Assembly (NCBI GenBank): GCA_027024025.1
Contig: JALVTT010000157.1
Coordinates: 128 to 64,127, forward strand
DNA: 64,000 nt
From: Sedimenticola sp.
GTDB lineage: Bacteria > Pseudomonadota > Gammaproteobacteria > Chromatiales > Chromatiaceae
Direction of reading: 5' to 3'
The translations under genes were made by a program, and so were the position numbers. Shown here piece after piece: positions 36,661 to 57,593 of the stretch. The number at the start of each line of letters is the position of its first letter. The first letter of the stretch is position 1. The notes beneath the pieces were generated by a model. The model was not told where the DNA came from and made no database searches. It worked only from the letters and a program-made list of their open reading frames with translations.

Positions 36661-36718
36661 GAAGCCACTTCCCGTCATTCGGTAGTCATTTCAGTGCAAG
36701 GGGCTGAGAGGGCAAGAA

Positions 36719-37375: not shown

Positions 37376-37534
37376 CCCCCGGGCGGTTTTTTGGATTCAG
37401 GATTTCGCGATCACGGGGCGCATCCGCTTAACCCACGCCGGGATCGAGCACTTCAATCTTATACCAACTGCCACCCTCAGCTCGAACACAGGCTTGGCAT
37501 GACGAAGTTGAGTAATGCACACCCAACATTTTTG

Positions 37535-37561
37535 GGCCATGATCTGGTTGAACGGTAGGAC
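37535..37561 (+). repeat. 27-bp direct repeat, copy 2, 48 nt upstream of the helicase-nuclease start
   Basis: GGCCATGATCTGGTTGAACGGTAGGAC. Confidence 0.8.
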
Positions 37562-37608
37562 TAGAAATTGGCCTTGTGAATTCAGGCTCACAATGAAGAA
37601 AGAAAGCT

Positions 37609-40524: not shown

Positions 40525-42326
40525 TCAAGAAAAAGAAAGAAATGAACTTGGGAGAAAACCAAGGGCAATCGACCGAAGTGGACAAGTACGAGTTCGAACC
40601 CATTCAGGGGTACCCAATGCTGCACTGGAAAGGAAAGCGGCCGTTCCAGTCAACGCAGTATTACCCGGCGCAGCTCAAGGAAGTATATGGCCCAGAGGTT
40701 AAAGGGTGGCGGAACAAGATTTACTGGGGGGATAACCTTCAGGTGATGGGTCATTTGTTGAAGGAATATCGAGGAAAAGTTGATCTTGTTTATATCGACC
40801 CCCCGTATGACTCTAAAGCAGAATACAAGAAATCTATTTCCGCAAAAGGAAAGAAAACGACATCTGACCAGTCTTCGTTTGAGGAAATGCAGTATACGGA
40901 CATTTGGACTAATGACTCATACCTTCAATTTATGTATGAGAGGCTTATTATTGTTCGTGAATTATTGTCGCCTACGGGGAGCATTTATGTTCATTGTGAT
41001 TGGCATAAGAATCACTATATACGCTGCATTCTTGATGAGATATTTGGACCCAACCATTTCAGAAATGAGATCGCATGGCATTATTTTGGATTTAAGAGAT
41101 CTACTGCCAGAAAGTTTCCGCAGAAACATGACACTATATTGTCGTACGTTAAATCTGATGAATATACGTGGAACGTACAGTACAGACCGCATAGTGAAGA
41201 ATATGTAAAAAGGTTCAAGGAAGATGAGAACGGTCGACTATATAGAGATGATGTTAATCCTACTGGAGGAGGATCTCGTATAATATACTTAGACGAAGTG
41301 CCAGGAGATATTATTGACTCAACGTGGGATGACATTCCACCTGTTAACCCTGTAGCAAAAGAACGCCAGAATTATCCAACCCAAAAGCCGGAGGCGTTAA
41401 TTGAGAGGATAGTTGCCGCTTCAACTAACCCAGGCGATCTGGTATTTGACTCTTTTATGGGGGCGGGAACAACCCAAGCCGTCGCCATGAAACTTGGCCG
41501 TCGCTTCATCGGTGCGGACATCAACCTTGGGGCCATACAGACTACCACCAAGCGTCTAATTAAGGTGGCTGAGGAGCTAAAAAACAATCAAAACGACCTT
41601 CTTGATGCAGAAGAACAACCCACCTACTACACCGGGTTTGAAGTCTACAATGTCAACCACTACGACATCTTCCGCAGCCCGGTAGAAGCGAAGGAACTAC
41701 TCATCGAAGCCCTGGAGATCCAAAAGTTGGAGACCAGCAATATCTACGATGGCGAGAAGGATGGCCGCATGGTAAAGATCATGCCGGTCAATCGCATTGC
41801 GACCAAGGCCGATCTGAACGACCTTATCGCCAACTTGGACTACAAGGCCTTCGAGCGCCGCCAAGCCGAACATCCCACCCGGCCGGTAGAGAAGCTACTC
41901 ATCGTCTGCATGGGCCACGAGCCTGACTTAGCAGCGACGCTGCAGAACGAGGTGCCGTTCCCTCTGGATATTGAGGTGGTGGACATCCTGCGTGACAAGT
42001 CCAACCTGGAGTTCAAGCGCGATGCCGAAGCCAAAGTGATGGCCAAAAATGGGAAACTGATCATCGAACAGTTCTACCCCATGAACCTGCTACAGAAGCT
42101 CAGCTTGATGAAGGAGAATGTGGAAGACTGGCGCGAGCTCGTAGAATCAGTGATGGTGGACTGGAACTACGACGGGGCGGTACTGGAGCCGGCCGTCGTG
42201 GATCTACCCGACAAGAATGAGCTGGTCAAAGGAGAATACGAGATTCCCGAAGATGCCGGCACCATCATGGTAAAGATCACTGACCTGCTTTCAGAATCCC
42301 TGGAAGTGGAGGTTCAATATGGCTAA
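40521..42326 (+). CDS. mod: Type III-like DNA methyltransferase (Mod; beta-class N6A/N4C)
   Basis: Motif IV (DLVYIDPPYDS) precedes motif I (FDSFMGAGTTQAVAMKLGRRFIGADIN), with a variable region between them. ATGA overlap with the helicase gene. Confidence 0.85.
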   Translation: MIKKKKEMNLGENQGQSTEVDKYEFEPIQGYPMLHWKGKRPFQSTQYYPAQLKEVYGPEVKGWRNKIYWGDNLQVMGHLLKEYRGKVDLVYIDPPYDSKAEYKKSISAKGKKTTSDQSSFEEMQYTDIWTNDSYLQFMYERLIIVRELLSPTGSIYVHCDWHKNHYIRCILDEIFGPNHFRNEIAWHYFGFKRSTARKFPQKHDTILSYVKSDEYTWNVQYRPHSEEYVKRFKEDENGRLYRDDVNPTGGGSRIIYLDEVPGDIIDSTWDDIPPVNPVAKERQNYPTQKPEALIERIVAASTNPGDLVFDSFMGAGTTQAVAMKLGRRFIGADINLGAIQTTTKRLIKVAEELKNNQNDLLDAEEQPTYYTGFEVYNVNHYDIFRSPVEAKELLIEALEIQKLETSNIYDGEKDGRMVKIMPVNRIATKADLNDLIANLDYKAFERRQAEHPTRPVEKLLIVCMGHEPDLAATLQNEVPFPLDIEVVDILRDKSNLEFKRDAEAKVMAKNGKLIIEQFYPMNLLQKLSLMKENVEDWRELVESVMVDWNYDGAVLEPAVVDLPDKNELVKGEYEIPEDAGTIMVKITDLLSESLEVEVQYG

Positions 42327-44940
42327 GCGCACCACCAGCGGGCTGGATCTCAACTTCACCTTCTACGAGCACCTGCGGGCCTTCTATCTGGAGAACAAGG
42401 GCACCATCCGCAAGCACTACCGCGAGCTTTCGAAGAAGTTCCTGGATTTCAATGACCCGTCGGACGGCACTGCCTTTTTGCGCCTCCCCCAGTTCGAGGC
42501 GTTGGAGATGTACGTCTTTCTGAAAGAGTTTCTGGATAATCAGCCGGTGCACCGGCTGTTTCGTGACTGGGCGGACAAAACCGGAAAATTTGCTGGCCGT
42601 AAGGACATCGCCCTGCTGGAAGAGCTGAACAAGGACGACTATGAGGCGCTGTTCAAGCGTATGAAGAAACAGGCCCGCCTCTACCCCAACTACATCTTTG
42701 CGCTGACCATGGGCACAGGCAAGACCATTCTCATGGCCACCTGCATCTTCTACGAGTTCATCCTGGCCAACAAATTCCCCAAGGATAAGAAGTACTGCCA
42801 CAATGCCCTGGTGTTCGCCCCTGATCGAACCGTTCTGCAATCGCTGAAAGAGATTCAGACTTTCGACATGGCCAAGGTAGTGCCGCCCGAGTATGTGAAC
42901 TTTCTCACCCAGCACATCCAGTTCCACTTTCTGGAAGAGGCGGGCACCACCCTCAACACCCTGGATCGGTCGCGCTTCAACCTCATCATCTCGAACACCC
43001 AAAAGATTATTCTCAAGAAGCAGCGCAAAGAAAAGACCGCCGCTGACGAGCTGTTCGGCAAGGGGAAGCCCACCTTCGATGCCAAGAGCGTGTATGCCGC
43101 CAATGAAGATCTCTACGGCTTCGATATACCGGAAGACGAACAAGACCTGACCACCAATCAACGCTTCGACAAGTTGCGACGCTTGGAACAGTTGGGCATA
43201 TACATCGACGAAGCGCACCATGCGTTCGGCAAGAACCTAGCCAAAGACACTGGCAGTGTGAAAGACACTCGCAAAACCAGCCTTCGCAATACGGTCGATC
43301 TTTTGGCCAAGAGCCTCAAGGCCTCTGGTACTCATGTGGTGGCCTGCTTCAACTACACCGGCACGCCCTACGTGGGGAGGGAAGTTTTGCCGGAGGTGGT
43401 CTATGCCTATGGCCTGAAAGAGGCCATCGACAAGAGCTTTCTGAAAAAGGTTGTGCTCCACGGATACACCACCACCCGCGACAAAGAGTTTGTGGCCCTA
43501 GCCATCGATAACTTTGTAAAAGAGACCAAGGGTCTTCGTCCCGAGGGGATGTTGCCCAAACTGGCCTTCTTTGCGGCCACCATCGAAGAGCTGCAACAGC
43601 AGTTGCGGCCTGCGGTAGAAGAGGCGCTGACCAAGCATGGTATCCCGCTAGATCGCATACTGGTGAACGTGGGAGACCCGAAGCTCACCACCAACGACGA
43701 CATCCGGGAGTTCAACCTACTTGATTCTCCACGTTCGGAAAAGCAGTTCATTCTGCTGGTGAACAAAGGCCGCGAGGGCTGGAACTGCCGCTCGCTCTTT
43801 GGCGTTGGGCTTTTCCGTGAACCGAAATCCAAGGTATTTGTCTTGCAGGCCACCATGCGCTGCCTGCGCCAGATCGGTGACATCCAGCATACCGGACAGG
43901 TTTATCTTAGCCATTCCAACCTTGAGATTCTCAACGACGAGCTGCAACAAAACTTCCGCATCAGTGCCGAAGAGTTTGAGAACAGTGGTACCAACAAAAT
44001 TCGCGTGGAGGTGCGGCCGGTGCCACCGCCCCGAAAGATCAAACTCAAGCGCATTCATCGTAAATTCAAGCTGGAAGAGAAGAAGCCAACCAGGGGACTC
44101 AGTCTGGAGCTGGATAAGGCGGATACCGAACAGTACAAGTTACTTCACTATACGCAGGAAGGACTGGACCCAGCAGATGCTGCCAGAAAGACGCGTGGGC
44201 AACCAGAAGATCTAACGGCACTACGTGAGCGCCGCGTTTTCAGTGAGATTACACTGGTGGCAGAAATCTCCCGTTATCTGAATAAGCCCTGTCTGATGAT
44301 TCAGGAAGTGTTGGCTGGCACCGAAGAAGGCATAGACAAGATTCTTGAATATATAAACAGGTTCAACGAGCTACTCTATGATTGGATCATTCCGCGACTC
44401 TTCCATGCGCTCTACAAGATCACGCCAGAAGAAGAGACGGAGGAGTACGAGATCGAGCTCATCAAAGTCCCCGAGAAAGGTTACTATGAGGTATCTGCTG
44501 ACAAAGACAAGATTGTTAGAATGGACGACCCTAGCCTAAAGTCCCTACAGAAGGATCGCAGTTTTCACCTGGACACCTACTGTTTCGACTCCGGATCAGA
44601 GAACCAACTGTTCTGGGATCTCCTGCGCGAGCAGCGGGTAAAGAAAATCTACTTCACCGGGATGCTCACCCACGGCCAGTCTGACTTCTTCATTCAGTAC
44701 ATAGACCCGGACTCGCGGACGGTGCGCAGCTACTACCCAGACTTCTTGTTCTTGCGCGAAGAGCCGGATGGGACGGAAAAGTACGTGATAGTCGAAGTCA
44801 AAGCCGACAACCAGATCGACGACGCCGTCGTCCAGGCCAAGAAGGACTTCGCCCAACAGATTGCGGTGGCCAGCGGCATGGAGTACCGGATCATCAAGTC
44901 CACGGATGCGGACAAGCGAAACTACCGCGTGCTGATGTGA
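42319..44940 (+). CDS. res: Type III restriction enzyme Res subunit (SF2 helicase plus C-terminal PD-(D/E)XK)
   Basis: Contains LTMGTGKTILMA (motif I), YIDEAHH (DEAH) and a C-terminal YYPDFLFL...YVIVEVKAD. It overlaps mod by 8 nt. Confidence 0.85.
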   Translation: MAKRTTSGLDLNFTFYEHLRAFYLENKGTIRKHYRELSKKFLDFNDPSDGTAFLRLPQFEALEMYVFLKEFLDNQPVHRLFRDWADKTGKFAGRKDIALLEELNKDDYEALFKRMKKQARLYPNYIFALTMGTGKTILMATCIFYEFILANKFPKDKKYCHNALVFAPDRTVLQSLKEIQTFDMAKVVPPEYVNFLTQHIQFHFLEEAGTTLNTLDRSRFNLIISNTQKIILKKQRKEKTAADELFGKGKPTFDAKSVYAANEDLYGFDIPEDEQDLTTNQRFDKLRRLEQLGIYIDEAHHAFGKNLAKDTGSVKDTRKTSLRNTVDLLAKSLKASGTHVVACFNYTGTPYVGREVLPEVVYAYGLKEAIDKSFLKKVVLHGYTTTRDKEFVALAIDNFVKETKGLRPEGMLPKLAFFAATIEELQQQLRPAVEEALTKHGIPLDRILVNVGDPKLTTNDDIREFNLLDSPRSEKQFILLVNKGREGWNCRSLFGVGLFREPKSKVFVLQATMRCLRQIGDIQHTGQVYLSHSNLEILNDELQQNFRISAEEFENSGTNKIRVEVRPVPPPRKIKLKRIHRKFKLEEKKPTRGLSLELDKADTEQYKLLHYTQEGLDPADAARKTRGQPEDLTALRERRVFSEITLVAEISRYLNKPCLMIQEVLAGTEEGIDKILEYINRFNELLYDWIIPRLFHALYKITPEEETEEYEIELIKVPEKGYYEVSADKDKIVRMDDPSLKSLQKDRSFHLDTYCFDSGSENQLFWDLLREQRVKKIYFTGMLTHGQSDFFIQYIDPDSRTVRSYYPDFLFLREEPDGTEKYVIVEVKADNQIDDAVVQAKKDFAQQIAVASGMEYRIIKSTDADKRNYRVLM

Positions 44941-45139
44941 ACTGAGAGAACCAGAGCTGGAATGTTTCTCCCCACCTACTGTCGCCTGTAAAGAATGCCG
45001 GCACCGTCAAGCCCAGGCCGCCAGCGAACAAGAAAAAAACGACTCAGTTAATCAGGCAGGGGGTAATAGCCGTCTGAAATGGCCGGTTACCACGTTCCAG
45101 CGCCCATCGCCCCGAGGAGACACACGGTAAGTCCTTCCC

Positions 45140-46744
45140 TCAAGGCGTATCCCGTTTCCCCCGCAGCCGGCAACGCATAGTCGCTGGCCGACCACTATCG
45201 AAATATGGGAGCTCGATCTCCTCGTCGATGGTCGTACAGTAGTTCTCAGCAAACAGTTGCAAGTGCGCCGCATCCCGAGCCACATCAGAGTCGGCGGGGA
45301 GGTGCTGAAGAATGGCGTCACTCACAAACATGATGAACTTGCTGCGAGCTCGGGTTAAGGTCACGTTGAATCGTCTCGGGTTCAGAATGAATGCCTCTTC
45401 TGCGGCGACGAAATCGCGGTCAGCGACAACGTAGCTTGCTATCATCAGGTCCCGCTCCTGGCCCTGGAACCTGTCTACTGTATCCACGAATGGCGGTGGA
45501 TCCATGGGCATCCCAGCTGCGTCTACCAGGAGGTTTTTGATGGTAGACATCTGCGCCCGGTGAGGCGTCACGATGCCTAGATGCTCTGACCAGAACTGCT
45601 GGTCACCGGGGCCGTTGCCGTCCTGCTCAAGGATGCGTCGGTACAGCAGGGCAAGAGCCGTAACCATCTGGGCTTCAAACGGATTTGAAAGCGTCGACAT
45701 GTGAACGCCATAGCTGATGACGACCACCGGTATCTCCGGGTCGAGGATCCTTAGAAATAGATCACTCCATGGCAGGTTTGCCGGCCACCCATCCGGCGGG
45801 CTACCTATTGCAGGCAGAGCAATGCCGAGCCTTCGTTCTGGGAAAAACGCCTCGTATCCTTCGCTATAGAACCGCTCCTTGGGCCATCCAGAAATCTCCG
45901 TGTTTGTCCGGTAATTGCGATCCAGGGCAACAGGATCTTTGCCGTGGGTTTCCTGCATGTACGAGAAGATGCAATCGAAAAGCCCCTGAACGCTGTCTCG
46001 CATTTCGAATCCGTAGATCGGACCAAGCTGCTTGTGATCTCCAGCGAGGATTACATGCCCGTCTTCACGCAGAAGCAGGAAATAGGCTGCCGCGTATGCC
46101 ACCGGAACCTGCGATGCTTCGTCGATCACCAGGAGATCGAACCATCTGGCGACTGGAGTCCCATCACCCGAAACAACCTCTGCGAGTCGCCCAAGTTGCG
46201 TCCAGGTGCCACCAACCACCACACATTCTGTCCGCTCATGCATGGCTCCAGCCAGAACGCGTGCTGCCTGTGCCGTGCGAACAACGTCTTCGATGCATTC
46301 ATCGAGAGGAGGCTTCGCCGATTCGTTGCGCAGGCGCGCAATGCGCACATTGCCGGGCAGCTCGCCCAGGACAGAGGCGCGTTGGCCCAGCAAGTCCGCA
46401 ACTTCTCTCAGGACGTTGTCGATGGCGTTGTAATTGCTCGCGCCGACTCCGACCGTGATCGGTTCACCGCTCTGCCATGCGTTTTCTATCCAACCCAAAA
46501 TGACGCCAGCCAGCACGGTTGTCTTTCCGGTCCCCGGTGGACCCCACAGCAATGACAACCGGTCTGTGAACGAGCTATGAAAGGCGTCCGCTTGGCGGGG
46601 ATTGAAGGAGTGCTTCTGGTACTGTGCAACCTGGTTCAGAAGGTCCTCGACCTCTCCGTGGCTACGGGTGACCTGCAACTGCCCGGGCTCATACAGGAAG
46701 CCATGAGCGGGTTCTGTTCGGGGATATTGTACGCGCCTTGCCAT
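45140..46744 (-). CDS. Upf1/Dna2-like SF1B helicase (AAA_11/AAA_12 type)
   Basis: Contains WGPPGTGKTT, LVIDEASQV, LAGDHKQLGPI, DRNYRTN, IVTPHRAQ, VDRFQGQERD and FNVTLTRAR. ATG 46744 lies 2 nt after the upstream stop codon, behind a GGAGGAGGG Shine-Dalgarno sequence. Confidence 0.85.
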   Translation of the reverse strand: MARRVQYPRTEPAHGFLYEPGQLQVTRSHGEVEDLLNQVAQYQKHSFNPRQADAFHSSFTDRLSLLWGPPGTGKTTVLAGVILGWIENAWQSGEPITVGVGASNYNAIDNVLREVADLLGQRASVLGELPGNVRIARLRNESAKPPLDECIEDVVRTAQAARVLAGAMHERTECVVVGGTWTQLGRLAEVVSGDGTPVARWFDLLVIDEASQVPVAYAAAYFLLLREDGHVILAGDHKQLGPIYGFEMRDSVQGLFDCIFSYMQETHGKDPVALDRNYRTNTEISGWPKERFYSEGYEAFFPERRLGIALPAIGSPPDGWPANLPWSDLFLRILDPEIPVVVISYGVHMSTLSNPFEAQMVTALALLYRRILEQDGNGPGDQQFWSEHLGIVTPHRAQMSTIKNLLVDAAGMPMDPPPFVDTVDRFQGQERDLMIASYVVADRDFVAAEEAFILNPRRFNVTLTRARSKFIMFVSDAILQHLPADSDVARDAAHLQLFAENYCTTIDEEIELPYFDSGRPATMRCRLRGKRDTP

Positions 46745-46746
46745 GA

Positions 46747-49453
46747 TCAAACCCTCCTCCTTCTTCTCCTTTGCATCGGGGGAGGGTTGCCACCAATGGC
46801 GCGCAGCGCTTGCTCTATCCTTCGGCTGGAGAAGTCCTGGTACAGCGGATCGAGAACCATCGGCTGATCCATATCAAGAATGCCCTCATCTTGAGCCAGC
46901 CTAAACAAACCACTATTAGATGGCCTGAGCACCAGAAACGGGGGCTCATGCGTCGCTACCAAACGCACCATCTCAACCTGAAGTACTTTTCCAAGTGAAG
47001 CATTCACCATCCACTCTTCATCCAACCCGTATCCATCCAACAGATCCTTTGCTTCGTCGAACGATGATAGACCCAAGTGTATTCGCCACGGAACGTCGAG
47101 TTCGATGTCGGAGTCTTCATTGGATAATGCCAATAGAAAGTCCCCTTCATTTATCCTGGCATCTCGTGATGTGTGAGCAAACGTAAAGGCAAGGAGTTCA
47201 GCGCCAACATAACGGGAATCCGATCTGCGTACCCCTTTGATACAGTCCTCGTACCCCCCCCCCGATGGCTGGCTGAATCCCGCGAATTGAAAAGAAACGA
47301 GCTTCCCGCTCGTCAACGGGAAGTGCCCGGCGCTGTCGGTTCTCAATCTCCTGGGTTGCTACATTCAGCTTCTCGAAGGCGATGAGGCTGCGAGCACGCT
47401 CAGGGACCTTCATCTGCTTTGGTGGAGCAGAGCTGAACGGAGACTTTCGAAGCATAAGCCGGTCACGGTAATGCTCCCGTAGTCGCCTCACGATATGCTG
47501 CAGCGCTCGGAGATGGACGCGTGTTGCGTGCTTGACCCCCTCATAGAGCTCGTCTCGCGTGTATGGCCGCCACCGCGATGGTTGACCCGGAAACCTTGGG
47601 TCAAAATGTCTCAGAAAAATCTTGTCCTGCCATAACTCGTAAGCCCGCTCAAAGGGGATCTGGTCGCTCATGGGAGTGCTGAAGCCGAACGGCAGTTGGA
47701 ACCGGTAAGGGTCACCATTCTCGTTGCGAACGGGAAAGAGTGTGTTGGCTGTCTCGAACAGGGAATAATCATGCGCAATTGGAAGGCCAAGAAGCAGTCG
47801 GACGACATCCTTCACGATAGTACCCGGCTGAGACTTGAACAGCTCTGGGTCAGGCAAGAGATCGTCCGGTGGAAAGAGACGAATCAGCAGCTCTATCAGG
47901 TCCACGACCTCCGGGTGGTTCATGTGTCTCTCGAACATCCGCCGAAGCTGGCGGACCTCGAGCATGTCCCAGAGAAAGATATGGGATGAAAGGAGCTTGT
48001 TAAGCTCATTTCCTTTCTTACCCTGCCGTTTTAGGTGCTTGTTCTCCTCTCCTAATTCTTTGTTCTTCTCTGATACTTCTTCAAGCCACCGAGAGACGAG
48101 GGTGACGAACTCCACCAGGCGGGCCCGCTCTGTATCCGGGTTCATTGCGTCGACGCGGTCCACGACAAACACATGTTCTTCCGTTTGGGGTGGATCCCCC
48201 TGACTGCGGCCCGGTGGGAAGTACACTCGGGCGGCGCCCATGGCGAACGTAATGCCGGAACCGGGATCGAAGTGGACCGTAATGAAGATGTTCTGGTCGC
48301 TCCATGCAGGCATAAGTGAGCATTTGCGCCCCTCAATAACGACGGGCTCGTTGGTGTGGAGTGCTTCGGCTCGCACCAACAGAGCTGGACGATCAGCGCG
48401 AAGCTGGTGACTTGACGCTTCTGCGGCCTGCCACTCCGTTGTGCTGCCTCTGATGGCCTCCCTCAAGCTCTGCGTGGTCGCGATTCCGTTCTGGCGCAGA
48501 AGCTCGGCTTGTCCCTGATTGAGCCACGGCAGCCGGGAGAGATGGTCACAGTTCTCCGCCTCCTGCTTGCAGTATCGGACGTAGTCACATAGCTGGCACT
48601 TTGGCCCCACGTGCCAAGAGGCCTCTTCCGGTCTCTGCTCGAGAACCCGGAGTAGTCGTTCCTCGAAGAACTGCTTGACGTGGACCTGGTACACCTCGTA
48701 GGGGACCGGCACGAGGGTGTCCTGTAGGGCTGAAGTAACAGGGTCACTATCTCCTCTTGCTTCGTATTCACGAACAAGATTCCGGAAGGCGTTAGCATCA
48801 TGACTACCAGGCCAAATGAACCCCTCTGCGCTCACAGCGTATCGATCCGACAGGCCCTGTTCCGCCAATGCCGCCGCCAGCGAGAGCGCGTAGTAGGTGA
48901 CTTCCGTAAAATGGCGAAGGGAAGGCTCGGCCGCCATTTTCACGTCAATCACATGTAGCTCGAACTCCGGCACAGGATCCGGATCGCCGATAAGCGGATG
49001 TCCCGTGCCGCCGGCTCGAATCCATATGATGTCGGGACGGGCTCTTACGGTCTCCAAACCGTAGGTGTCGTATGCCTCTTGGAGACCCGGTGTGATATTT
49101 GACGGAACCTCGAACTCAGCTTCGATGATGGCAAATGGCGGGCTCTCACGCCGCAAGATTTCGAACAGGTTCTCGACCTTACCGAATGGCTTCCGACCAA
49201 CAAGCTCATCGACCTCTTCCTTCTCGACATACTCGACGGCGTCCGGCGGTGAAACGTCGATAAGATCCTGGTACTTGTCCGCCTCCCACCGACGCCCGGC
49301 CGCCTTGATCAGTTCGATACCGGGTCGCTTGTAGGTATCGGCTTCGATGCAGAGAGAGTCTTTTTCGGCGTCGGATGCCAGCCGAAATCGAAGAAAGCGG
49401 TCACAATCAAACTTGAATGTGAGCGCGAGCGTGCCTTTGTCCAGCCGGGGCAT
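46747..49453 (-). CDS. Large Cas4-like PD-(D/E)XK Fe-S nuclease with an RNase-H-like middle region (TM0106-family-like). As sequenced it is split into two frames (49453..47198 and 47346..46747) by a frameshift in a G10 tract
   Basis: Contains FKFDCDRF, PDIIWIR, ELHVIDVKM, TYYALSL and CQLCDYVRYC (a Cas4-type Cys4 arrangement), then an HhH-like LNQGQAELLRQNGI and IFITVHFDPGSG / HIFLWDMLEV. Both frames look like coding sequence on their respective sides of the tract. Confidence 0.7.
47254..47263 (-). repeat. Homopolymeric tract, G10 on the coding strand (C10 on the plus strand)
   Basis: Counted directly in gtaccccccccccgatgg. It lies within the 149-nt overlap of the two nuclease reading frames. 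Confidence 0.95.
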
Positions 49454-49454
49454 G

Positions 49455-51641
49455 TCAGTTGCCTCCTCGTTCTCTTGTGCGATAGAGTGCCGTGTGAAGT
49501 GGCACGGACTCGTCGTCTGCCTTTCCCAGGACCGCCGACGCCACAATCATGGCCCGTTCCAGGTTCAGGCGGTCTGGCTCTCGGAAGCCGATTCGTTTCT
49601 TATCGCCGAGTTCCTTGGCGTAGGCATCCGCACGGCATCTGGCATCGGCCATAGCGCTGCGCGGAACGACCACTGGACAGGACTCTCCACCGGGCGCCTG
49701 TGCATCCCTGCGGCATATGAATACGGCATCCCACTTGATGGTTCCATTGTAGGAATGAAGCCCCCCCTGACCCTCACCGCGAAGGGGCAGGACGGCGGTA
49801 CACCTGAATCCCGATCTGGCCAGCGCCTCGCCTACAGCATTCCACGCAGCAATGTGCTTGTGGTGATAGGTGAAGACAAAGACTCCATTCCGTTTGAGCA
49901 CACGCCGGCATTCGGAGAAGATCCGCTGGAGCCTTTCACGATAAACCGCAATCGACTCGTCGGCTCGGGAGGTCAAGGCGAGGTTCTCTCCGATAGGGAC
50001 CGCAAGGTGCGGATCATCGAATGGAGGTTCCGCCTCTCCAAGGGACTGGTGCCAGGCCAGGTAGAAGTCGGAGAGCTCCGAGTAGCTCAGGTTATCGAAG
50101 TACGGAGGATCCGTGAGGATGAGGTCGATGGTTCCATCGGGGATCTCGGCCAGATCCTCGGAAGTTTTTGTGCGTATGGAAGCTCTTGAGGAGCCGGTCA
50201 GGACCTGCCAGGGGTTGGCAGAAACCTCCGAGGCGTAAACGTGCTCTCCCGCCTTGGACGGAACGCGGCCGCCTTTCGGGTCCAACTCGGTCGGGGCCTT
50301 GGCAAACGCCACCGCCTTCGTGATCTTGCTGAGAGTGTTCGGAAACGTACCTCGCCCAATACCCTCGAGCCATGGATTGATTTCCACCGGCCTCGTGATG
50401 TGCCGGTAGGAATGGATTGAGAACATAGGGCTTACGCGGCGGTAGCCGAAAGCATACGCCGTGTACATGCAGTTCGTGGTGAGATGCTCGCTGAAGGCCA
50501 TAGCAAGGACGCGCCGGGCACGAGGCTCATCCACCGCTGCGATGGCCTTGCCAAGCAGGGTCAGATGTAGCAGCTGCCGGTCGTTGAAAAGGTCTCGATA
50601 CCTTCTGAAGCCGTGGATAATAGGTCGCTGGTCTGAGCGGCCATCTGTCGGGATCTCGCGCATCGGCGCAAACGGGCCCTCGGAGCCCTCAATCTCCTTG
50701 AGAAGGCGCGAGGCTTTTCCGTAGCGAATACGATCTCCTTTCGTCACCTTCTTGAAATGCCGCGTTACGCCACCTGGGTTTCGCTCGATGTATTCTTGGG
50801 CAAACAAGCGCCACGCCGGGGGCGTCGGACTATCTCCACGATCAGCGAGACCCGTTATGTCGCCACATGCGGGACAGCGAACCTTTCCACGATTGAGGGT
50901 GCCCCGTGCGATACGGGTCCGGGTCCCGCACGTACAGCGGATTTCCTTCCGCTCTATCGGAAGCTCGTGGACTTCGTGGCATGTCTTACAGAAGGCCCAC
51001 TGGAGCCCCTTCTCCTTGTTGGACGCCAACTGGAAATGCGGATGGATCTCGAAAGAGGTCCCGCAGGAACGACAGGTGCGACACTCCACCCAGAAGTGAT
51101 GCAAGACCTCATGCTCCCGGCCTTTGACTTTGGTCCTGTGGAAAGGTGCCAGCTGGGCAGCAATGGAGGCGCAGAGCTCGGCAATCTCCTCGCTCTCGGG
51201 ATCGTAGGCAGCTGCTTCCAGTTCAAATCTCGTGATGAACGTGGCTACCGGGTCGATGTCGTATCCAATCACGTGTGCACCACAGCGCATGGCTTCCACC
51301 AAGCTGGTTCCCCCTCCGACGAAGGGATCCAGGACCACCGCGCCGTCCAGAGGCACCTCACCCAGGAAGGTGTCCCAAAAGCGGTTCGCTTCATCAGCAT
51401 CAAGCGAAAGACCGGTCAAGATTGACCGGAACTGAGAACCAAGGCGTCGAGCGAACCAGCGGTGAACCCGATAGAGCGGGTTCGTGCATTGACCTTCCCG
51501 CATGGCAAGTTCAGCGATTTCGGCAATCGGAATTGCGCCCGACTCCAGTAGGGTCGTGTCCAGGAAACCGTGCAAGTGAAAGCGTGGGACGTCCTCTCGA
51601 GCCCCCCGGCGCTTCTGGGATGTGGATTGCACGAGCGTCAT
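49455..51641 (-). CDS. DUF1156/COG1743-type DNA methyltransferase with Zn-ribbon insertions
   Basis: N-terminal YRVHRWFARRLGSQFRSIL (the DUF1156 signature WWARRP-like), motif I VLDPFVGGGTSLVEA, CxxC pairs (CRTCRSCG, CKTCH, CTCG, CPACG) and motif IV ILTDPPYFDNLSYSELSDFY. Confidence 0.8.
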   Translation of the reverse strand: MTLVQSTSQKRRGAREDVPRFHLHGFLDTTLLESGAIPIAEIAELAMREGQCTNPLYRVHRWFARRLGSQFRSILTGLSLDADEANRFWDTFLGEVPLDGAVVLDPFVGGGTSLVEAMRCGAHVIGYDIDPVATFITRFELEAAAYDPESEEIAELCASIAAQLAPFHRTKVKGREHEVLHHFWVECRTCRSCGTSFEIHPHFQLASNKEKGLQWAFCKTCHEVHELPIERKEIRCTCGTRTRIARGTLNRGKVRCPACGDITGLADRGDSPTPPAWRLFAQEYIERNPGGVTRHFKKVTKGDRIRYGKASRLLKEIEGSEGPFAPMREIPTDGRSDQRPIIHGFRRYRDLFNDRQLLHLTLLGKAIAAVDEPRARRVLAMAFSEHLTTNCMYTAYAFGYRRVSPMFSIHSYRHITRPVEINPWLEGIGRGTFPNTLSKITKAVAFAKAPTELDPKGGRVPSKAGEHVYASEVSANPWQVLTGSSRASIRTKTSEDLAEIPDGTIDLILTDPPYFDNLSYSELSDFYLAWHQSLGEAEPPFDDPHLAVPIGENLALTSRADESIAVYRERLQRIFSECRRVLKRNGVFVFTYHHKHIAAWNAVGEALARSGFRCTAVLPLRGEGQGGLHSYNGTIKWDAVFICRRDAQAPGGESCPVVVPRSAMADARCRADAYAKELGDKKRIGFREPDRLNLERAMIVASAVLGKADDESVPLHTALYRTRERGGN

Positions 51642-52933
51642 GATCCACCTACCTTCGCAGCTGGCAAGCTTTCCGTGCGTAGATCAATCAAACCTTGGTC
51701 AAGACCGTTCCTAGGACGCATAATCTTAAGAGGTAGTGGAACCCAATACTCCTTCCCTCTACTACGAACTACCAGCCCTCCATCCAGTACGTCGGTCAAT
51801 TCTGTTGTCTTGGGCATTGGCTGCCCATGAAAATACCTCATTGCGACCCTTGCCCACTTCCTCCGGAACTCCGGCGTATCCTCCGGATTCTTCATCATGG
51901 CGATGAGCTGGCGTTCCAACCTTGCCTTGCTGCGCTCCTTCGCCCGCTTCTCGTCCGTCTGCGGCACCAGGCTCACTCCCTGCGCTTCATTGATGAAATT
52001 CACGAACCCCGTGATATTCGCCTTCTGCCCCGGCTTGTCCAGCAGGTAGGCGTCGAGATCTGGCTGGACGGGTACGCACCCCTCTGCCCGGAGCACCAGA
52101 TCCGCCGCCGCCGAGAGCACCATGCGGACGCTCCGCAGCGAGGTTTTCCCTTCCTCCAAACGAGCCATCAAACGCTCGCGGTAAGCATGCCACAACGCTC
52201 CTCCGGCGGTCGAGGCGTCAATTCTCTCCCCCAGCTCCCTGATACGCCGCCGTTCGGAATCCTCCTCCCGCGCCTTTTCATCCACCTTCAGCCGTCCGGA
52301 TTGCTCCATCCACTGGATCGCCAGCCTTACCCGACGCAACCCCTCCGCATGAAAGCGCGCCACCAGTTCCTTGTAGTCCGGGATGCAGCCCCATTCGGCG
52401 TCCATCTCCTGGAAGAAGGCAAGGTACTTATTGATCCGGATGGCCGCCACGTTCGCGCCCCGCCGCGCCTCCAGCCAGCGCCCGAACACCCCAAATTCCT
52501 CGGCCAGGCCATTCCCAAGGCCCGCCTGACAGATCGCAATCCGCTTCTCCAGCAAATCCTTCCAGTAGCAATCCTCGCAACGGTCTCCCCGGCCTGCTGG
52601 CATGGGGCTTCCGCATTTCAAGCAGGAACGGATTCCCTCATCCAAGCAAGGCCGACACAACAACCGTCCATCATCCGCCTTTATCAGCCGCCGATGTCTG
52701 CCGCACGCAGGGCAGGTAGCGTGATCGGCCCGTTGACATACGGGACAGACCGGCTCATCAATGCCCAGCCGCAACGCACGCGCCAAGTGCCGAGACATGC
52801 GCCCACAGCGCGGGCATGGCTCCGGCTCCCGAAACCAGGGAACACAGGCGTTGCATACGGGACCTTCCGGCCTGCGCAGCCCCGTGGGCCGCCCCTTGCG
52901 ACCGCACCGGATACATGCCTCATCCGGCCTCAT
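51638..52933 (-). CDS. Cys-rich multi-Zn-ribbon protein of unknown function, in the fifth position of the tns operon (TniE-like by position only)
   Basis: At least 7 CxxC pairs lie in the first roughly 130 aa, followed by a helical C-terminal half. ATGA overlaps occur with tniQ upstream (start taken at ATG 52933) and with the methyltransferase downstream. Confidence 0.6.
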   Translation of the reverse strand: MRPDEACIRCGRKGRPTGLRRPEGPVCNACVPWFREPEPCPRCGRMSRHLARALRLGIDEPVCPVCQRADHATCPACGRHRRLIKADDGRLLCRPCLDEGIRSCLKCGSPMPAGRGDRCEDCYWKDLLEKRIAICQAGLGNGLAEEFGVFGRWLEARRGANVAAIRINKYLAFFQEMDAEWGCIPDYKELVARFHAEGLRRVRLAIQWMEQSGRLKVDEKAREEDSERRRIRELGERIDASTAGGALWHAYRERLMARLEEGKTSLRSVRMVLSAAADLVLRAEGCVPVQPDLDAYLLDKPGQKANITGFVNFINEAQGVSLVPQTDEKRAKERSKARLERQLIAMMKNPEDTPEFRRKWARVAMRYFHGQPMPKTTELTDVLDGGLVVRSRGKEYWVPLPLKIMRPRNGLDQGLIDLRTESLPAAKVGGS

Positions 52934-54042
52934 GCCAACCCTGCCTTGCGTTGGAGCCGTCGCCACATGCGCTCGACAGCCGCCCTCGAACGTGGGGCAT
53001 CGCCACTCCCGGCCCTTTTCCTTCGCGTTCGGCTCCGTTCTGGCAAAGCCGCCACCACCGGCTCCAGCAGCGCGGGCAGGCGGTTGCGAGTGCGAAAGGA
53101 ACGCACGGTCATCCCGGCCTCCAATGCGGCCTCGGTCATCTCACCAAAGCCTGTGGACGCAAGCCGCACTGCCGGAACAATCAGGCGCGCCCGATCGTCC
53201 AAGGGCAGCGCCTCGATGCTCAAAGTCAAGACAGGACGCTCAATCTCTCCGGCATCCGGCAATAAACTGTCCACGAACGCCCGCCGCACCACCAAGTCGC
53301 AGCGGCGCAGCCAACCCGCGAAGAAACGCGCAAGATCGAACCATTCGTGCGCCGGGACATCCTTGCCACCCCAACGCGCCATGCCCGTTCCGGCGGCCTC
53401 GTCGCAAGTCTTCTGCATCGCCAGCAACTCATCTCCGGCATCCTCCGGTTGCGTCTCGCGCAGGTCGCCATCACACAGGGCGCACTGGGCCAATGTTTCG
53501 TCCTCCGCCGCGAGGCGATGCGGGAGCACCGGTCCGCCGCAATGGGGGCAGCGATCCAGCAGCACCGTCCCGTGCTTGTTACAAGCGACATGCCACGCCA
53601 ACCGCCAATGCAGCCGCAAAAAGGGCTTGCCATCATCCTCCTTCAGGCAAACAGGGCAATATTGCCACCCCTGTACGCAGCGGCGGTTCCTGCGCCCAAA
53701 CGGGCGCACCCAAGGCCAAGGCTCATGCAACTCCGGCACCTGGCCAGCCACGTTCACCATAAGCGGCGGCAGCATCGAGGCCCGGAACGCCTCCGCTGCG
53801 ACACCGCATTCCTGTTCCAGGACGGCCAGCCTGTCATCGGGCATACCCCGGTCGCAGTCCATCGTCCACACGCGCCACTTGGGCCACAACTCCCCCGTGA
53901 GCACCAAGGGATCGCACCCCTGCGCCAAGGCCGCCCGGACCAGCCACCCGGAAAACGCCTCGTCGGGGAGCAGCGGCACCGGCAATATCCAACGGGCGTT
54001 CAGCGGACGACTTCCCGGATGCCACGAGTAGGCTTTACCCAT
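52930..54042 (-). CDS. tniQ: TniQ/TnsD-family target-site selection protein
   Basis: N-terminal ILPVPLLPDEAFSGWLVRAAL (TniQ pattern) and the Zn finger YCPVCL...CNKHG...CPHCG. The start is taken at ATG 54042. Confidence 0.75.
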   Translation of the reverse strand: MGKAYSWHPGSRPLNARWILPVPLLPDEAFSGWLVRAALAQGCDPLVLTGELWPKWRVWTMDCDRGMPDDRLAVLEQECGVAAEAFRASMLPPLMVNVAGQVPELHEPWPWVRPFGRRNRRCVQGWQYCPVCLKEDDGKPFLRLHWRLAWHVACNKHGTVLLDRCPHCGGPVLPHRLAAEDETLAQCALCDGDLRETQPEDAGDELLAMQKTCDEAAGTGMARWGGKDVPAHEWFDLARFFAGWLRRCDLVVRRAFVDSLLPDAGEIERPVLTLSIEALPLDDRARLIVPAVRLASTGFGEMTEAALEAGMTVRSFRTRNRLPALLEPVVAALPERSRTRRKRAGSGDAPRSRAAVERMWRRLQRKAGLA

Positions 54043-54899
54043 GACTTCGCCTCCACGATTTCTGGGGTGATGCATTCGATACCCGACTGGATGGCCTCGG
54101 TGGCGCACTCGATCAGCAGCCGGTGCAGGTCGCCCAGGTTGCCGCCACTGATCGCATGCAGCCGCCGGGCCAGCTCCGGGCGGTTCAACCCCGAAGGCTT
54201 GCGCAGCGGCAGGACCTGTTCGAAACCGACGAGCAGCCGTACAAACGGCTTGTCCAGATCCCACAATCCAAGCCGCACCACGTCGAACCGGCTGGCGTGC
54301 TGCGGATCGGAATGGAGCACCCGCACCGCCTCCGCCGTGCCCACCCCGACGATGGGGATGCCCAGCTCATTGCACAGCAGCTTGATGGCGTTCATCACCT
54401 CCCGCTGCTTGACCGGCGTCCCGGTCAGCAGGGAATGGAACTCGTCGATGACCAGCATGCGGACATGGCAGTACCGCATCAGGTGGATGAGCTGGTATCG
54501 CATCTTCGGTGCCGGGTCAGTGGCCCGGTAGGGGGTCCTGAACCGCTCCAGGATGGAAACGTACAACCCCTTCTCATCAGGCTTTGGCGGCGCCTCTGCC
54601 AGCACCACGGGGATGTGCGGCTCTCCCTCCTCTTCATCTACATGGGACTGACCGTGAAGCTGAACGAAGCGGCGGACCAAGGTGGTCTTGCCGTTGTTTG
54701 GCTCACCGACAATCAACAGGTTGAGCATCCGGGGCCGGGTGGGCATTTCCATCAAGGCGCGCATCCGCCTGATGATCTCGTTGGCCTGCGGATAGCCCAG
54801 CCAGCGAGGTTCGTACAGGAACCGGATGCGCTCCTCGTTGGATAGCCCGGCAACGTGCCGGAAATCCGGGTGAATATGGGAAAGATCCATGTCCGTCAT
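54000..54899 (-). CDS. tnsC: TnsC/TniB-type AAA+ transposition ATPase
   Basis: Walker A GEPNNGKTTL and Walker B MLVIDEFH. ATGA overlap with tnsB. Confidence 0.85.
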   Translation of the reverse strand: MTDMDLSHIHPDFRHVAGLSNEERIRFLYEPRWLGYPQANEIIRRMRALMEMPTRPRMLNLLIVGEPNNGKTTLVRRFVQLHGQSHVDEEEGEPHIPVVLAEAPPKPDEKGLYVSILERFRTPYRATDPAPKMRYQLIHLMRYCHVRMLVIDEFHSLLTGTPVKQREVMNAIKLLCNELGIPIVGVGTAEAVRVLHSDPQHASRFDVVRLGLWDLDKPFVRLLVGFEQVLPLRKPSGLNRPELARRLHAISGGNLGDLHRLLIECATEAIQSGIECITPEIVEAKSWVKPTRGIREVVR

Positions 54900-56773
54900 T
54901 CGATCTCACCAAGGGGTTCGTCAACCTGGAAAATGTCGTCATCCGCCTCCGGGACCTGCGCGGATACATCCTCCGCGGCCTGCGTGGACTCGACGGTAGC
55001 GGCTCGCTCCCTGTGATCCCGGCGTTTCTGGAGACTGCGCCGCGCCTTCTTGGTACGGGCCGCCGACTCCCGCGTCCGCTCGCGCAGCTCCTCCAGAGCC
55101 TCCAGAACGCGCCGCTCGTCCACCGCCTTCATACCTTCCTCCCGCGCCCGGTCACGCGCCTGCCGGTACTCCCATACACTCATTGGCGGCAGGGCCTGGT
55201 TGGCGAAGGGCACACGGAAATACTGGCGTAGGTCTGGATCGAAAAACCAAACCACACTGATGTCGCGAGGGTCGCGGCGGAAGGTGAACTTGCGCTTGGA
55301 CTTCGGATTGTCCGGGTCCGGCGCGCCGATCCAAGGTCGCAGCACGTCGGCATAGTAAGCCAGCCCCTCGATGGTCACACCATCCGGCTGGATGGTGCGC
55401 CGGAAACGTGGCAGGAAATCCAGCAGGAACGCCACCCGGTCGCCAGGTATCTTGGGCAAGCCACGCCCCGTTTCCCTTCCATCGCCAAACAGCCCGGTTT
55501 CCCACTTCTTGAGGGGCGGCATGCCGATCCCCGAGTGGATACGCAGGTGATACACCTTGCAGATCAGGGTCGCCAGCCATGCCTCGAACTCCTTGAGGGT
55601 CATCACCGCATGCTTGTCTGGCTGGTACTCTCCACGCTCCTTGATCGACGAGAAGGTGGTTCCCGGCAAGTCGTGGATCTCCTTGAGCAAAGTCCCCAGC
55701 AAGCGCTCGATGTGCCCCCCGAAGCGCGGCTGGCGGACGGGCCGGTACTCCAAGTTGATGCCGTGCAGCGCGCAGGCGTCGCGAAAGGTCGAGGAACGGA
55801 ACTCCGCGCCGTTGTCCACATGGATCGTGTCCATGAGGCCATATACAGGCCACTCCAGATCCTCCAGCCCAAGGCGCGCCAACCATTCGTCCTTCGGCAG
55901 TACCGCGTGAGCTACGCACATCGCCACGGAGGTCTCCGACGGGGCGTCGAACGAGACATAGAGACCAGCCACCATACGGGAGAAAACATCCATGGCCAGC
56001 GTGACCCAGGGCCGCCCGATGGGCTGTCGGTACTGGTCGTCCACCAGTACAACATCAACCGGCGTGTGGTCGATCTGCACATAGGCGAAGGGATAGTCCG
56101 CACCAGGGAAGGAACCCGGAGCAGGCGCGTACCGCTCCTCGGCCTCCTTTCTACGCCCCCGCCGCTTGAGGCGTTCACGGGGATGGATGGCGGCGACCCT
56201 GGCGCGAATGGTGTTGGCGTGGGGCGGCTGAAGGCCCATCTCCAGGCAACGCCGCCGCACCTCCAGAACCACTTTCTGCGCCGGTGCACGCTGGCGGGTC
56301 AGGTACACCGCCTCGATCACCTCGTTGATGATGGACTCCACGTCGTCCGGCAGGCGGTTCTCGCCGCGCCTGCGCCCGCGCTTTCGGGGTAGCAGAGCCT
56401 CCAAGGTGCCCGCCGCTTCGTAGCGGTTGAGCCAGCGGTAGAGGGTGGTGAAGTGAACGCCGACCTCGCTGGCGCGACGCTCGATCTCCTTCCGTCCAAT
56501 GCCAGGCTCCAGCAGCGGACGTATGGCCTCCATTCGGAAACGCGCAGCCTCAAGGTCAGCCTCGTCGATCTCCTCCAGTTCGCGGAAGGGGGCGGAATCT
56601 TCGGATACGGGAGCCAGATCGACGACGCGCAACGCCTTCTCCCGCCCGGTGGCCGGGTCCAGGCCGACAACGGTCTCGTAGTCGAGGATACTCCGGATCT
56701 CGTACACCCGACCATCGTGCAGCACCCGCCCACCAATAGACAGATCGAGAACGCTCCGTCCACTACCGCTCAT
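54896..56773 (-). CDS. tnsB: TnsB-type DDE (Mu/rve) transposase
   Basis: Contains QIDHTPVDV (D), IHVDNGAEFRS (D) and GGHIERLLGT (E), with N-terminal helix-turn-helix regions. Confidence 0.9.
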   Translation of the reverse strand: MSGSGRSVLDLSIGGRVLHDGRVYEIRSILDYETVVGLDPATGREKALRVVDLAPVSEDSAPFRELEEIDEADLEAARFRMEAIRPLLEPGIGRKEIERRASEVGVHFTTLYRWLNRYEAAGTLEALLPRKRGRRRGENRLPDDVESIINEVIEAVYLTRQRAPAQKVVLEVRRRCLEMGLQPPHANTIRARVAAIHPRERLKRRGRRKEAEERYAPAPGSFPGADYPFAYVQIDHTPVDVVLVDDQYRQPIGRPWVTLAMDVFSRMVAGLYVSFDAPSETSVAMCVAHAVLPKDEWLARLGLEDLEWPVYGLMDTIHVDNGAEFRSSTFRDACALHGINLEYRPVRQPRFGGHIERLLGTLLKEIHDLPGTTFSSIKERGEYQPDKHAVMTLKEFEAWLATLICKVYHLRIHSGIGMPPLKKWETGLFGDGRETGRGLPKIPGDRVAFLLDFLPRFRRTIQPDGVTIEGLAYYADVLRPWIGAPDPDNPKSKRKFTFRRDPRDISVVWFFDPDLRQYFRVPFANQALPPMSVWEYRQARDRAREEGMKAVDERRVLEALEELRERTRESAARTKKARRSLQKRRDHRERAATVESTQAAEDVSAQVPEADDDIFQVDEPLGEIE

Positions 56774-57422
56774 CGTCAGCCACCCAAACCATGGTGTCGT
56801 TGGTCAAGGGTTCGAACAGATCGCATTCGAGCCTTCCTGTAGCGACCAGATGCCAAGCCACAGCGATCCCGTGGGCCTTGCCATGTGGCCCCCACTTGGG
56901 AAAACAACAAGCGTCCACCAGCCGTCGGAAAGGCAGGCACCCCAAGCTCCGGGCCGTGTCGAGCAACCAATCCGCCAGATCCGTGTCCACGGCGATCTTG
57001 CGGTAGCGTGCCAGGAAACGCATGTTTTCCCACGCTTGGTCACGGACACGGCCCTCGTGCATGAGGCGGAACACGAACCCATTCTCCAGGCAGTACCGCG
57101 TGGCAGCGCGAAATTTTGGCTTCCACTTCTTGAGATTGCGAACCAACTTCTCTCGGGGTTTGACCTCGACCAGCTCGGAAGGCAAGTGCCGACCATACCT
57201 GGGCAATACGCCATGCTGCCGGTAATGGACGAGGTAATCCGGTGTGTAGGGGTGCTCGCTTCCGTTGGCACGGTAGCGGATGGTGACCGGCTGGGAGATT
57301 ACCTCGATAACCGAGCGGTCGGCTTCCAGACGGATGAGGAAGTCACGCTCCAGCGTGGATTCAAAGGCGATGGGCGTTTGACCCCGAAACAGGTAGATAC
57401 CCGAAACGCTCTGGCGCGTCAT
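56763..57422 (-). CDS. tnsA: TnsA endonuclease (restriction-enzyme-like 5'-end cleavage subunit)
   Basis: Contains FESTLERDF, YTPDYLV and ELVEVKP (an E...D...EVK catalytic pattern). ATG 57422 follows a GGAGGAAGG Shine-Dalgarno sequence. A GTG at 57485 is an alternative start. Confidence 0.85.
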   Translation of the reverse strand: MTRQSVSGIYLFRGQTPIAFESTLERDFLIRLEADRSVIEVISQPVTIRYRANGSEHPYTPDYLVHYRQHGVLPRYGRHLPSELVEVKPREKLVRNLKKWKPKFRAATRYCLENGFVFRLMHEGRVRDQAWENMRFLARYRKIAVDTDLADWLLDTARSLGCLPFRRLVDACCFPKWGPHGKAHGIAVAWHLVATGRLECDLFEPLTNDTMVWVADDER

Positions 57423-57485
57423 GCCAACCTTCCTCCGAGGCGGCCCATCAGAAACTTTGTAGTGGATTTTGGTATTCAAAACCAC

Positions 57486-57593
57486 CCTCCGTAGCAGCTA
57501 TTGACGTTAAAGTGTAGCATAAATCGACAGAATCATAGCCTTTAAGTTATTGAAATATTGTTTTGAGTGTAGCTTCTTTCGATAGAAATCACA
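57486..57593. repeat. Transposon right end with 3-4 TnsB-type subterminal repeats
   Basis: TGTAGC motifs lie at 57568-57573 and 57513-57518, with the variants CATAGC at 57534 and GTAGC at 57491. The terminus reads ...GAAATCACA. Confidence 0.8.

Follow-up and report, generated by a model that had tools for sequence, protein, structure and literature searches.

Defence genes are a classic class of contingency loci, and it is a well-known pattern that costly restriction nucleases are lost while methylases persist. Helicobacter methylome work has reportedly found frameshifted restriction genes whose cognate methylase genes are active. Here we describe a putative nuclease gene that is split by a run of ten guanines (G10) in a stretch of 64,000 nucleotides (nt), hereafter the window, from the gammaproteobacterium Sedimenticola sp. 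(assembly GCA_027024025.1, contig JALVTT010000157.1). The gene stands between a DNA methyltransferase (MTase) gene and a helicase gene. Among described systems, the Pgl system of Streptomyces coelicolor (BREX type 2) shows poly-G phase variation of pglX, measured in both directions at 1e-2 to 1e-4 (Sumby and Smith, 2003, summarised in PMC4365076), and contractions and expansions of the tract were also selected as suppressors upon removal of pglZ (PMC4365076). The NlaIV_E endonuclease gene in Neisseria carries a poly-T tract (bioRxiv 10.64898/2026.01.10.698759). Three criteria have been set for phase-variable loci, namely a single-locus toggle, reversibility and a measurable switching rate, together with a warning against terming 'accidental' mutation-prone tracts phase-variable (Bayliss et al., 2025, PMC11868660). 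Accidental tracts in this sense include the 7C tract of meningococcal siaD and homopolymer indels in Mycobacterium tuberculosis (PMC11868660).

The window resembles Streptomyces Pgl in that a G homopolymer lies in a gene of a putative methylation-based phage-defence operon, in a high-GC, non-pathogenic bacterium, and a change in its length frameshifts the gene. There is also a parallel to the removal of pglZ, since the window cassette has lost the PglZ gene and a 260-amino-acid (aa) gene that precede the MTase in its closest relatives. The Pgl tract, however, is located in the methyltransferase and both directions of change were measured, whereas the window tract is located in the nuclease and has been seen at one length. 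With the phase-variable endonuclease genes of Neisseria (NlaIV_E) and Helicobacter, the window shares a homopolymer in a PD-(D/E)XK nuclease gene and an OFF state that would leave the methylase active. Those tracts lie near the 5' end, abolish the catalytic core, are conserved in many isolates and are length-polymorphic, in contrast to the window tract, which is found in one allele, is monomorphic and, at codon 731 of 901, comes after every catalytic motif. The window tract also resembles the siaD and M. tuberculosis tracts, which are likewise lineage-specific, inactivate a gene by slippage and give no evidence of evolved mutability or demonstrated reversibility. G10 is longer than these examples and should therefore be intrinsically more unstable. 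An earlier note on this DNA had invoked the phase variation of restriction-modification (R-M) genes as precedent. That precedent is valid and includes endonuclease genes (the NlaIV poly-T) and the pglX poly-G.

The reading that we consider probable is that a slipped-strand +1 frameshift occurred recently in a lineage-specific poly-G tract, that it truncated the cassette nuclease, and that it is fixed at the consensus level wherever this allele has been assembled. The following features define the break.

47254..47263, minus strand: G10 homopolymer (C10 on the plus strand), read directly; a +1 insertion relative to the in-frame G9 state.
47198..49453, minus strand: truncated nuclease open reading frame (ORF), 751 aa as it stands, starting at ATG 49453; it retains the N-terminal PD-(D/E)XK/iron-sulphur (Fe-S) nuclease domain, a helix-hairpin-helix-like region and middle domains; its product is recorded in four contigs.
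46747..47253, minus strand: continuation of the nuclease gene in the second frame (168 codons and a stop), encoding a conserved C-terminal alpha/beta domain.

On the plus strand, positions 47254-47263 and their flanks read TCGTA-CCCCCCCCCC-GATGG, which is G10 in the coding sense of the minus-strand genes. The upstream frame reads ...IRGIQPAIGGG through the run (FFSIRGIQPAIGGG) and then continues for 18 codons (VRGLYQRGTQIGFPLCWR) to a TGA at 47200-47198. The second frame is open from the run onwards (GGGYEDCIKGV...); after 168 codons it meets a TGA at 46749-46747, which leaves 2 nt to the helicase ATG at 46744. When the tract was edited in silico from ATG 49453, G9 and G12 each gave one continuous ORF (901 and 902 aa, respectively), G8 gave 766 aa and G11 gave 767 aa; the products of G7, G8, G10, G11 and G13 all fell within 750-767 aa. 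The facts in the earlier note's description are all correct: it had placed a G10 tract at 47254-47263 that splits the nuclease gene into two frames, and it had held that G9 or G12 would yield one ORF of about 900 aa ending beside the helicase start.

Apart from the tract, the gene is sound. More than 240 homologues of the nuclease were found, and the best 120 of these were nearly all full length (881-890 aa) at 62-90% identity; the G9-frame protein aligned to homologues across the tract site without a gap. As the reference intact cassette we used L009 (GCA_913063805.1), which is 93.6% identical over 6,584 alignment columns. Insertions and deletions (indels) relative to L009 measured 45, 3, 3 and 3 nt plus the single tract G, so that the extra G alone was not divisible by three. 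At the tract site L009 reads AAC-GGAAGAGTT-TAC (AAC GGA AGA GTT TAC). The ratio of non-synonymous to synonymous substitution rates (dN/dS) relative to L009 was 0.16 downstream of the tract and 0.18 upstream, with no further lesions. Since the downstream value matches the upstream value, the break is recent. The neighbouring products matched their L009 counterparts over their full length, the MTase at 95% and the helicase at 93%, and the exact helicase product was present in five contigs. The tract and the frameshift are real, and the rest of the nuclease gene and both neighbours are intact.

We sought G10 and its possible length variants in other public data. The exact 751-aa product was recorded in four contigs. 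The truncated nuclease, helicase and MTase products led to DNA that was 100% identical to the window over 8.6-14.3 kb, in a scaffold of the European Nucleotide Archive (ENA; ERZ23491061/SAMN10217895) and in the Logan assemblies SRR13853571 and SRR13622959. G10 was found in 5/5 contigs spanning the tract, from at least three other read sets, all of these being consensus assemblies of read sets whose independence, origin and platform are unverified. The Logan contigs ran unbroken through the tract. In a collection of 15 billion proteins the G10 product was present and none of the products of G7, G8, G9, G11, G12 or G13 was. A search of JGI metagenome contigs with a tract-flank pattern allowing a gap of 6-14 nt had no match and is hence uninformative on length variants.

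If the extra G were a sequencing or assembly artefact, then the true sequence would be G9 and the gene intact. The window comes from a metagenome-assembled genome, homopolymers of ten or more bases are error-prone on several platforms, and the gene is otherwise perfect, with G9 giving a gap-free alignment against all homologues. Against this, G10 recurs in the ENA scaffold and in two Logan assemblies of different runs (their independence of sample and platform being unverified), and no G9 product is recorded anywhere. The recurrence of G10 in at least three other read sets makes a homopolymer sequencing error, which the earlier note had kept as an alternative, very unlikely.

The relatives suggest how the tract may have arisen. 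Around it, identity to L009 drops over a short patch:

46909..47308, minus strand: diverged, apparently recombinant patch holding the tract; 71-78% nucleotide identity to L009, as against 92-99% over most of the rest.

The synonymous substitution rate (dS) was ~1.0 in aa 701-820 and ~0.1 elsewhere. This low identity together with a dS of about 1 around the tract suggests a recombinant patch that diverged while still functional. None of the 119 homologues aligned at the tract site carried GGG there, and none of ~85 orthologous loci carried a G/C run of at least 9 at the site; among 34 peptide variants (NGRV, TGGV, IGAE and others), none was GGG. A protein search with the C-terminal 211 aa alone, which returned mostly gene fragments, found no GGG-bearing allele and no closer one. 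The tract is accordingly private to this allele or lineage. L015 reads GGGAGGGTT at the site, a G-rich precursor three substitutions away from G9, and the homologue P0129 is without six residues there, which marks the site as an indel-tolerant loop. We propose that a G-rich codon triplet (in relatives GGGAGGGTT or GGAAGAGTT) in a recombinant, fast-evolving loop became a poly-G tract, and that this tract then slipped from G9 to G10, shifting the nuclease frame by +1. All of this would have taken place within a three-gene cassette of MTase, Fe-S PD-(D/E)XK nuclease and superfamily 1 (SF1) helicase, carried on a Tn7-like transposon in comM of an uncultured gammaproteobacterium.

Other copies of the nuclease gene have been broken by different means. 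In L040 (2968-3999) it is interrupted by an IS630-like insertion, with MTase and helicase intact. In L077 (around 1331; also P0128) it is broken by a 7-nt tandem duplication of GGACTGA, with intact neighbours in the part of L077 that is covered. A (GCTTG)4 repeat breaks it in L032 (5060-5085), where MTase and helicase are again intact, and L034 (around 9085) has another nuclease frameshift, with the helicase alone found beside the nuclease. More split copies occur in metagenome contigs and may be sequencing errors. The frameshift in the window fits a wider pattern in which the nuclease gene appears to have been knocked out repeatedly by unrelated mutations. The earlier note had suggested comparing tract length in homologous elements, with uniform G10 reads and orthologues that lack any tract pointing to a simple pseudogene; the ~85 orthologous loci do lack it.

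How far the tract exceeds chance depends on the background chosen. Dinucleotide-preserving shuffles of the GC-rich window contained at least one G10 in 44/100 cases, and on base composition alone the tract is not remarkable. Long runs are depleted in real coding sequence. In ~294 kb of related loci, G/C runs of 5, 6, 7, 8 and 11 bases were counted 262, 48, 8, 1 and 1 times, respectively; in a further 324 kb of the same module, runs of 5, 6, 7 and 8 were counted 240, 48, 13 and 2 times, and none was longer. Counts thus drop about five-fold with each extra base over these ~620 kb, in which a module gene contains a run of at least 9 in only one other case. When the three cassette genes were recoded synonymously with their own codon usage, 8.5% of 5000 trials gave a G/C run of at least 9. 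The tract is unusual, yet not improbable enough to require selection. Poly-G tracts as a family-wide trait of the module were considered and rejected, because the 61 further loci (324 kb) have no run of at least 9 in the module. Other G runs occur sporadically near the module: two loci (L072:1234-1242 and L096:1234-1242) have an in-frame G9 in a small XRE-like gene that precedes the MTase, and in two others (L094:2194-2201 and L095:2194-2201) the GGG in motif I of the MTase (FTGGGTS) comes from a G8.

Several observations weigh against a simple knock-out and in favour of a genuine phase-variable (contingency) switch, in which G9 would be ON (901 aa) and would exchange at high frequency with G10, G8 or G11 as OFF, the methylase staying on. 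A length of ten is squarely within the range of proven phase-variable tracts, and a change in length toggles the frame. Relative to related sequences the tract has acquired 3-5 substitutions, every one of them towards G, resulting in three GGG codons in a row, in a cassette where GGG accounts for 20.5% of Gly codons; such a pattern could be a mark of selection for mutability. Elsewhere the gene is undamaged, and dN/dS is low downstream of the tract. Moreover, a second long tract is present in the same module of another lineage:

L029:6773-6783: G11 tract in the MTase gene of the cultured isolate Geomesophilobacter sediminis Red875 (NZ_JAEMHM010000014.1).

This G11 lies in frame (AAG GGG GGG GGG GCG; IKGGGAV) in the MTase of an orthologous module, at a site where seven close relatives read AAG AGG GGC GTT CCG or similar. 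As with the window tract, it lies in a variable loop and came about through several substitutions, each of them to G. Consensus assemblies, furthermore, cannot reveal minority tract lengths, and the read sets may all come from one population. Precedents for the gene class exist in the pglX G tract (PMC4365076) and the NlaIV endonuclease poly-T (bioRxiv 10.64898/2026.01.10.698759). With such a switch a population could turn restriction on and off, which might, for instance, let useful DNA in or ease autoimmunity after transposition into a new, unmethylated host. The data at hand speak rather against it. The tract was seen at a single length in all five contigs, no product of another length is on record, and the k-mer-based Logan contigs are unbroken at the tract. 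It is missing from the ~85 orthologous loci, and it is the only homopolymer of at least 8 bases in the 64-kb window, where the G/C runs next in size, three in all, measure 7 bases; the genome thus gives no hint of being rich in contingency loci. Of the three properties listed in PMC11868660, the toggle alone is seen here (901/902 aa at G9/G12, 750-767 aa otherwise). A tract beyond chance and maintained in related alleles is likewise not what the orthologous loci, the shuffles and the recoding trials describe. The earlier note had proposed a phase-variable tract, and no public assembly or protein set holds a length variant. We regard the switch as rather unlikely. That an evolved contingency switch operates in an environmental, uncultured gammaproteobacterium, by which the transposon-borne module could, for instance, outlast its entry into an unmethylated genome, with sister modules independently evolving poly-G as in the Geomesophilobacter MTase, seems to us improbable.

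A further explanation is that the G10 allele still gives some full-length nuclease by recoding and is attenuated rather than off. Either RNA polymerase could slip and lose one G in the mRNA, or tRNA-Gly could undergo a +1 ribosomal slip on GGG-G before the rare codon GUA; a transcript shorter by one nucleotide, or a +1 shift on GGG GGG GGG G-UA, would restore the frame, and the frame beyond the tract is open throughout and evolves under purifying selection. Transcriptional slippage that rescues homopolymer frameshifts is known at A/T runs, and it is for these rather than for G/C runs that slippage is best documented. There are no conserved stimulatory elements, and the tract is unique to this allele, hence comparative support for recoding is lacking. 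We give recoding, by either route, only the slimmest chance. Returning to the recent +1 frameshift as the favoured explanation, reversion of G10 is mechanistically possible, because a run of this length is intrinsically mutable, and switching, or selection for it, is no more than a possibility.

What the truncated product does depends on the architecture of the nuclease. The repaired protein had no Pfam or PADLOC family match. Its sole family match was to TIGR03491 ('TM0106 family RecB-like putative nuclease'), which was partial and below threshold (34.8 bits against a cut-off of 97.45, covering 173-281 of the 462 profile positions). Among 40 aligned homologues the invariant residues included C17, D141, D170, K172, C286, C289 and C295. 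An N-terminal Cys and C286-x2-C289-x5-C295, the four cysteines of an Fe-S cluster, thus flank a PD-(D/E)XK core (D...D-x-K), as in nucleases of the Cas4/AddB/Dna2 type. The earlier note's description of the gene as a putative nuclease is plausible in light of these motifs and the weak RecB-like match, and the gene plausibly encodes one. 'Dna2' is also the JGI label on two of the nuclease homologues. The likeness to Cas4/AddB/Dna2-type nucleases that work with SF1B helicases (Dna2; Nhi-like) extends to the N-terminal Cys with C-x2-C-x5-C, the D...D-x-K core and an AAA_11/AAA_12 partner. Unlike those systems, nuclease and helicase in the window are separate polypeptides; the nuclease family, at 885-901 aa, has additional domains in the middle and at the C-terminus and matches nothing significantly in Pfam, PADLOC or PDB; and a DUF1156/PglXI-like MTase always accompanies it.

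An AlphaFold2 model of the homologue P0001, which is 90% identical, had a mean predicted local distance difference test score (pLDDT) of 68 and a predicted template modelling score (pTM) of 0.44. Its confident blocks were aa 60-270 (the nuclease, pLDDT 80-93), 310-370, 380-510 and 706-855. The last of these forms a separate C-terminal alpha/beta domain, and the tract site falls at about residues 715-717, at the start of this domain. Searching the PDB with a sequence profile of the nuclease family gave no match at E<=1, and Foldseek of the model against the PDB gave weak RNase H-like/PIWI/EndoV matches (E>0.02), which we take as a hint only. The 45-nt in-frame insertion relative to L009 (window 47996-48040) encodes, with its flanks, a Lys/Glu-rich stretch (...EENKHLKRQGKKGNELNKLL...) and lies in a helical segment, aa 439-466, modelled at a pLDDT of ~79-85. 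All catalytic nuclease motifs are within the first 300 residues and are therefore present in the 751-aa product, from which the C-terminal domain is lost. Because the motifs are retained, calling the nuclease 'OFF' is an inference, and the 751-aa product could be inactive, deregulated or partly active. The earlier note's claim that slippage silences a toxic effector is uncertain in this respect: every catalytic motif is kept, and the C-terminal domain alone is lost. Most likely, since the 751-aa product is without the conserved C-terminal domain, the restriction arm would be off or crippled while methylation continues.

The genes on either side of the nuclease, and the signal from which the helicase may be translated, are as follows.

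49455..51641, minus strand: intact DNA MTase, 728 aa, N6_N4_Mtase, DUF1156/PglXI-related, carrying an insert rich in Zn-ribbons; 1 nt separates its stop from the nuclease ATG.
45140..46744, minus strand: intact SF1 helicase (Dna2/Upf1-like, AAA_11/AAA_12; DpdJ/Dna2-like), 534 aa.
46752..46760, minus strand: Shine-Dalgarno sequence of the helicase, GGAGGAGGG, from the sequence read; it lies inside the Arg-rich 3' end of the nuclease gene.

The MTase matched PF01555 (N6_N4_Mtase) at 5.7e-13 and the PADLOC families MTase_II and PglXI, and it carries the motifs FVGGGTS and TDPPY. The 534-aa helicase form from the ATG start was found on record, and a 536-aa form from a TTG start was not. As the earlier note had it, the nuclease sits in a methylase/helicase context, here a tight operon with the MTase upstream and the SF1 helicase downstream. 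Its further suggestion, that slippage would silence the helicase through coupling, is weakened: GGAGGAGGG stands 8 nt upstream of the helicase ATG, and with such a strong Shine-Dalgarno sequence of its own the helicase need not rely on coupling for translation. Silencing of the helicase by Rho-dependent polarity is possible. A scan of the cassette for promoters and terminators gave nothing above the expectation from shuffles.

The three genes occur in the same order in essentially every related locus whose flanks are covered (17 of the checked loci). The loci come from Acidobacteriota, Desulfobacterota, Gammaproteobacteria, Chloroflexota, Planctomycetota and others. With an MTase that bears catalytic motifs, the set MTase-nuclease-helicase is, judged from its sequences, a mobile, R-M-like three-gene module, in which the nuclease, given its motifs, is a candidate for the effector blocked by methylation. 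Because the module is widespread across phyla and its 885-aa nuclease has no Pfam, PADLOC or PDB match, the module (window 45140-51641, minus strand; loci L009-L101) is a candidate for an R-M-like defence system that has yet to be described. The closest clade (L009 and L027) has two more genes upstream of the MTase, a PglZ gene (372 aa) and the 260-aa gene. Neither the window nor at least 17 other loci have PglZ, and of the BREX core, namely PglZ, a PglX-type MTase and a BrxC/PglY ATPase, no BrxC-like gene was seen. The missing PglZ and 260-aa genes were considered as proof of a degraded remnant, and this was rejected, because at least 17 loci across phyla carry MTase-nuclease-helicase alone. 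The 5' side of the cassette in the window holds one further feature.

51638..52603, minus strand: chimeric 321-aa ORF upstream of the MTase; its last 24 aa alone match the 260-aa gene of the closest relatives.

Nucleotide homology to the closest clade begins at 51708, a point that falls within the final 24 codons of the 260-aa gene. This start indicates that the 321-aa ORF is a chimera and that the 5' recombination boundary of the cassette lies at about 51708. The ORF between tniQ and the MTase (window 51638-52966, minus strand) has a 442-aa form that is CxxC-rich at its N-terminus and has no family match.

The cassette is cargo of a larger mobile element.

33873..57593, no strand assigned: Tn7-like transposon, 23.7 kb, with the cassette as cargo; TGTGA... 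terminal inverted repeats, GCAGC target duplication, inserted in comM.
52930-57485, minus strand: tnsA, tnsB, tnsC and tniQ, from the Pfam families of the called genes.

The N-terminal part of comM lies at 33021-33992 and its C-terminal part at 57563-58255, with the insertion after the ALVGGS codons. The 5-bp duplication GCAGC is found at 33868-33872 and 57594-57598, and the ends read TGTGAC... and TGTGAT.... The element thus shows TnsA/TnsB/TnsC/TniQ, TGT...ACA ends and a 5-bp duplication, as expected of a Tn7-like transposon, and SRR13622959 and ERZ23491061 show an identical comM junction. Tn7-like elements typically carry defence genes as cargo (PMC8649781). As for the host, an uncultured gammaproteobacterium, its LptD had a best match of 68%, and the matches bearing names were Chromatiaceae and Sedimenticola-like MAGs. 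A second R-M-like set lies in the same transposon (window 37609-44940, plus strand), whose genes overlap by 4-8 nt. It encodes a 971-aa fusion of a UvrD-family helicase and a PD-(D/E)XK nuclease, a 601-aa type III Mod-like MTase and a ResIII helicase of 873 aa that carries a TnsA-like endonuclease domain at its C-terminus.

Since the kind of event is already known, the novelty of the frameshift itself is modest. If it is a recent knock-out, as we consider probable, then it is one more case in which a nuclease has been lost and its methylase kept, and it matters mainly for annotation, where the gene should appear as a pseudogene or 'frameshifted' gene and not as two genes. If the tract proved heterogeneous in length among reads, the locus would offer one of the few cases of homopolymer phase variation in a bacterium that is free-living and uncultured, and the switch would lie on a Tn7-like transposon and act on the effector rather than the methylase. 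Geomesophilobacter sediminis Red875 is a cultured isolate in which poly-G switching of this module could be tested. An evolved switch, if real, would mean that simple-sequence-repeat phase variation of defence systems reaches beyond host-adapted pathogens and is tied to the spread of mobile elements.

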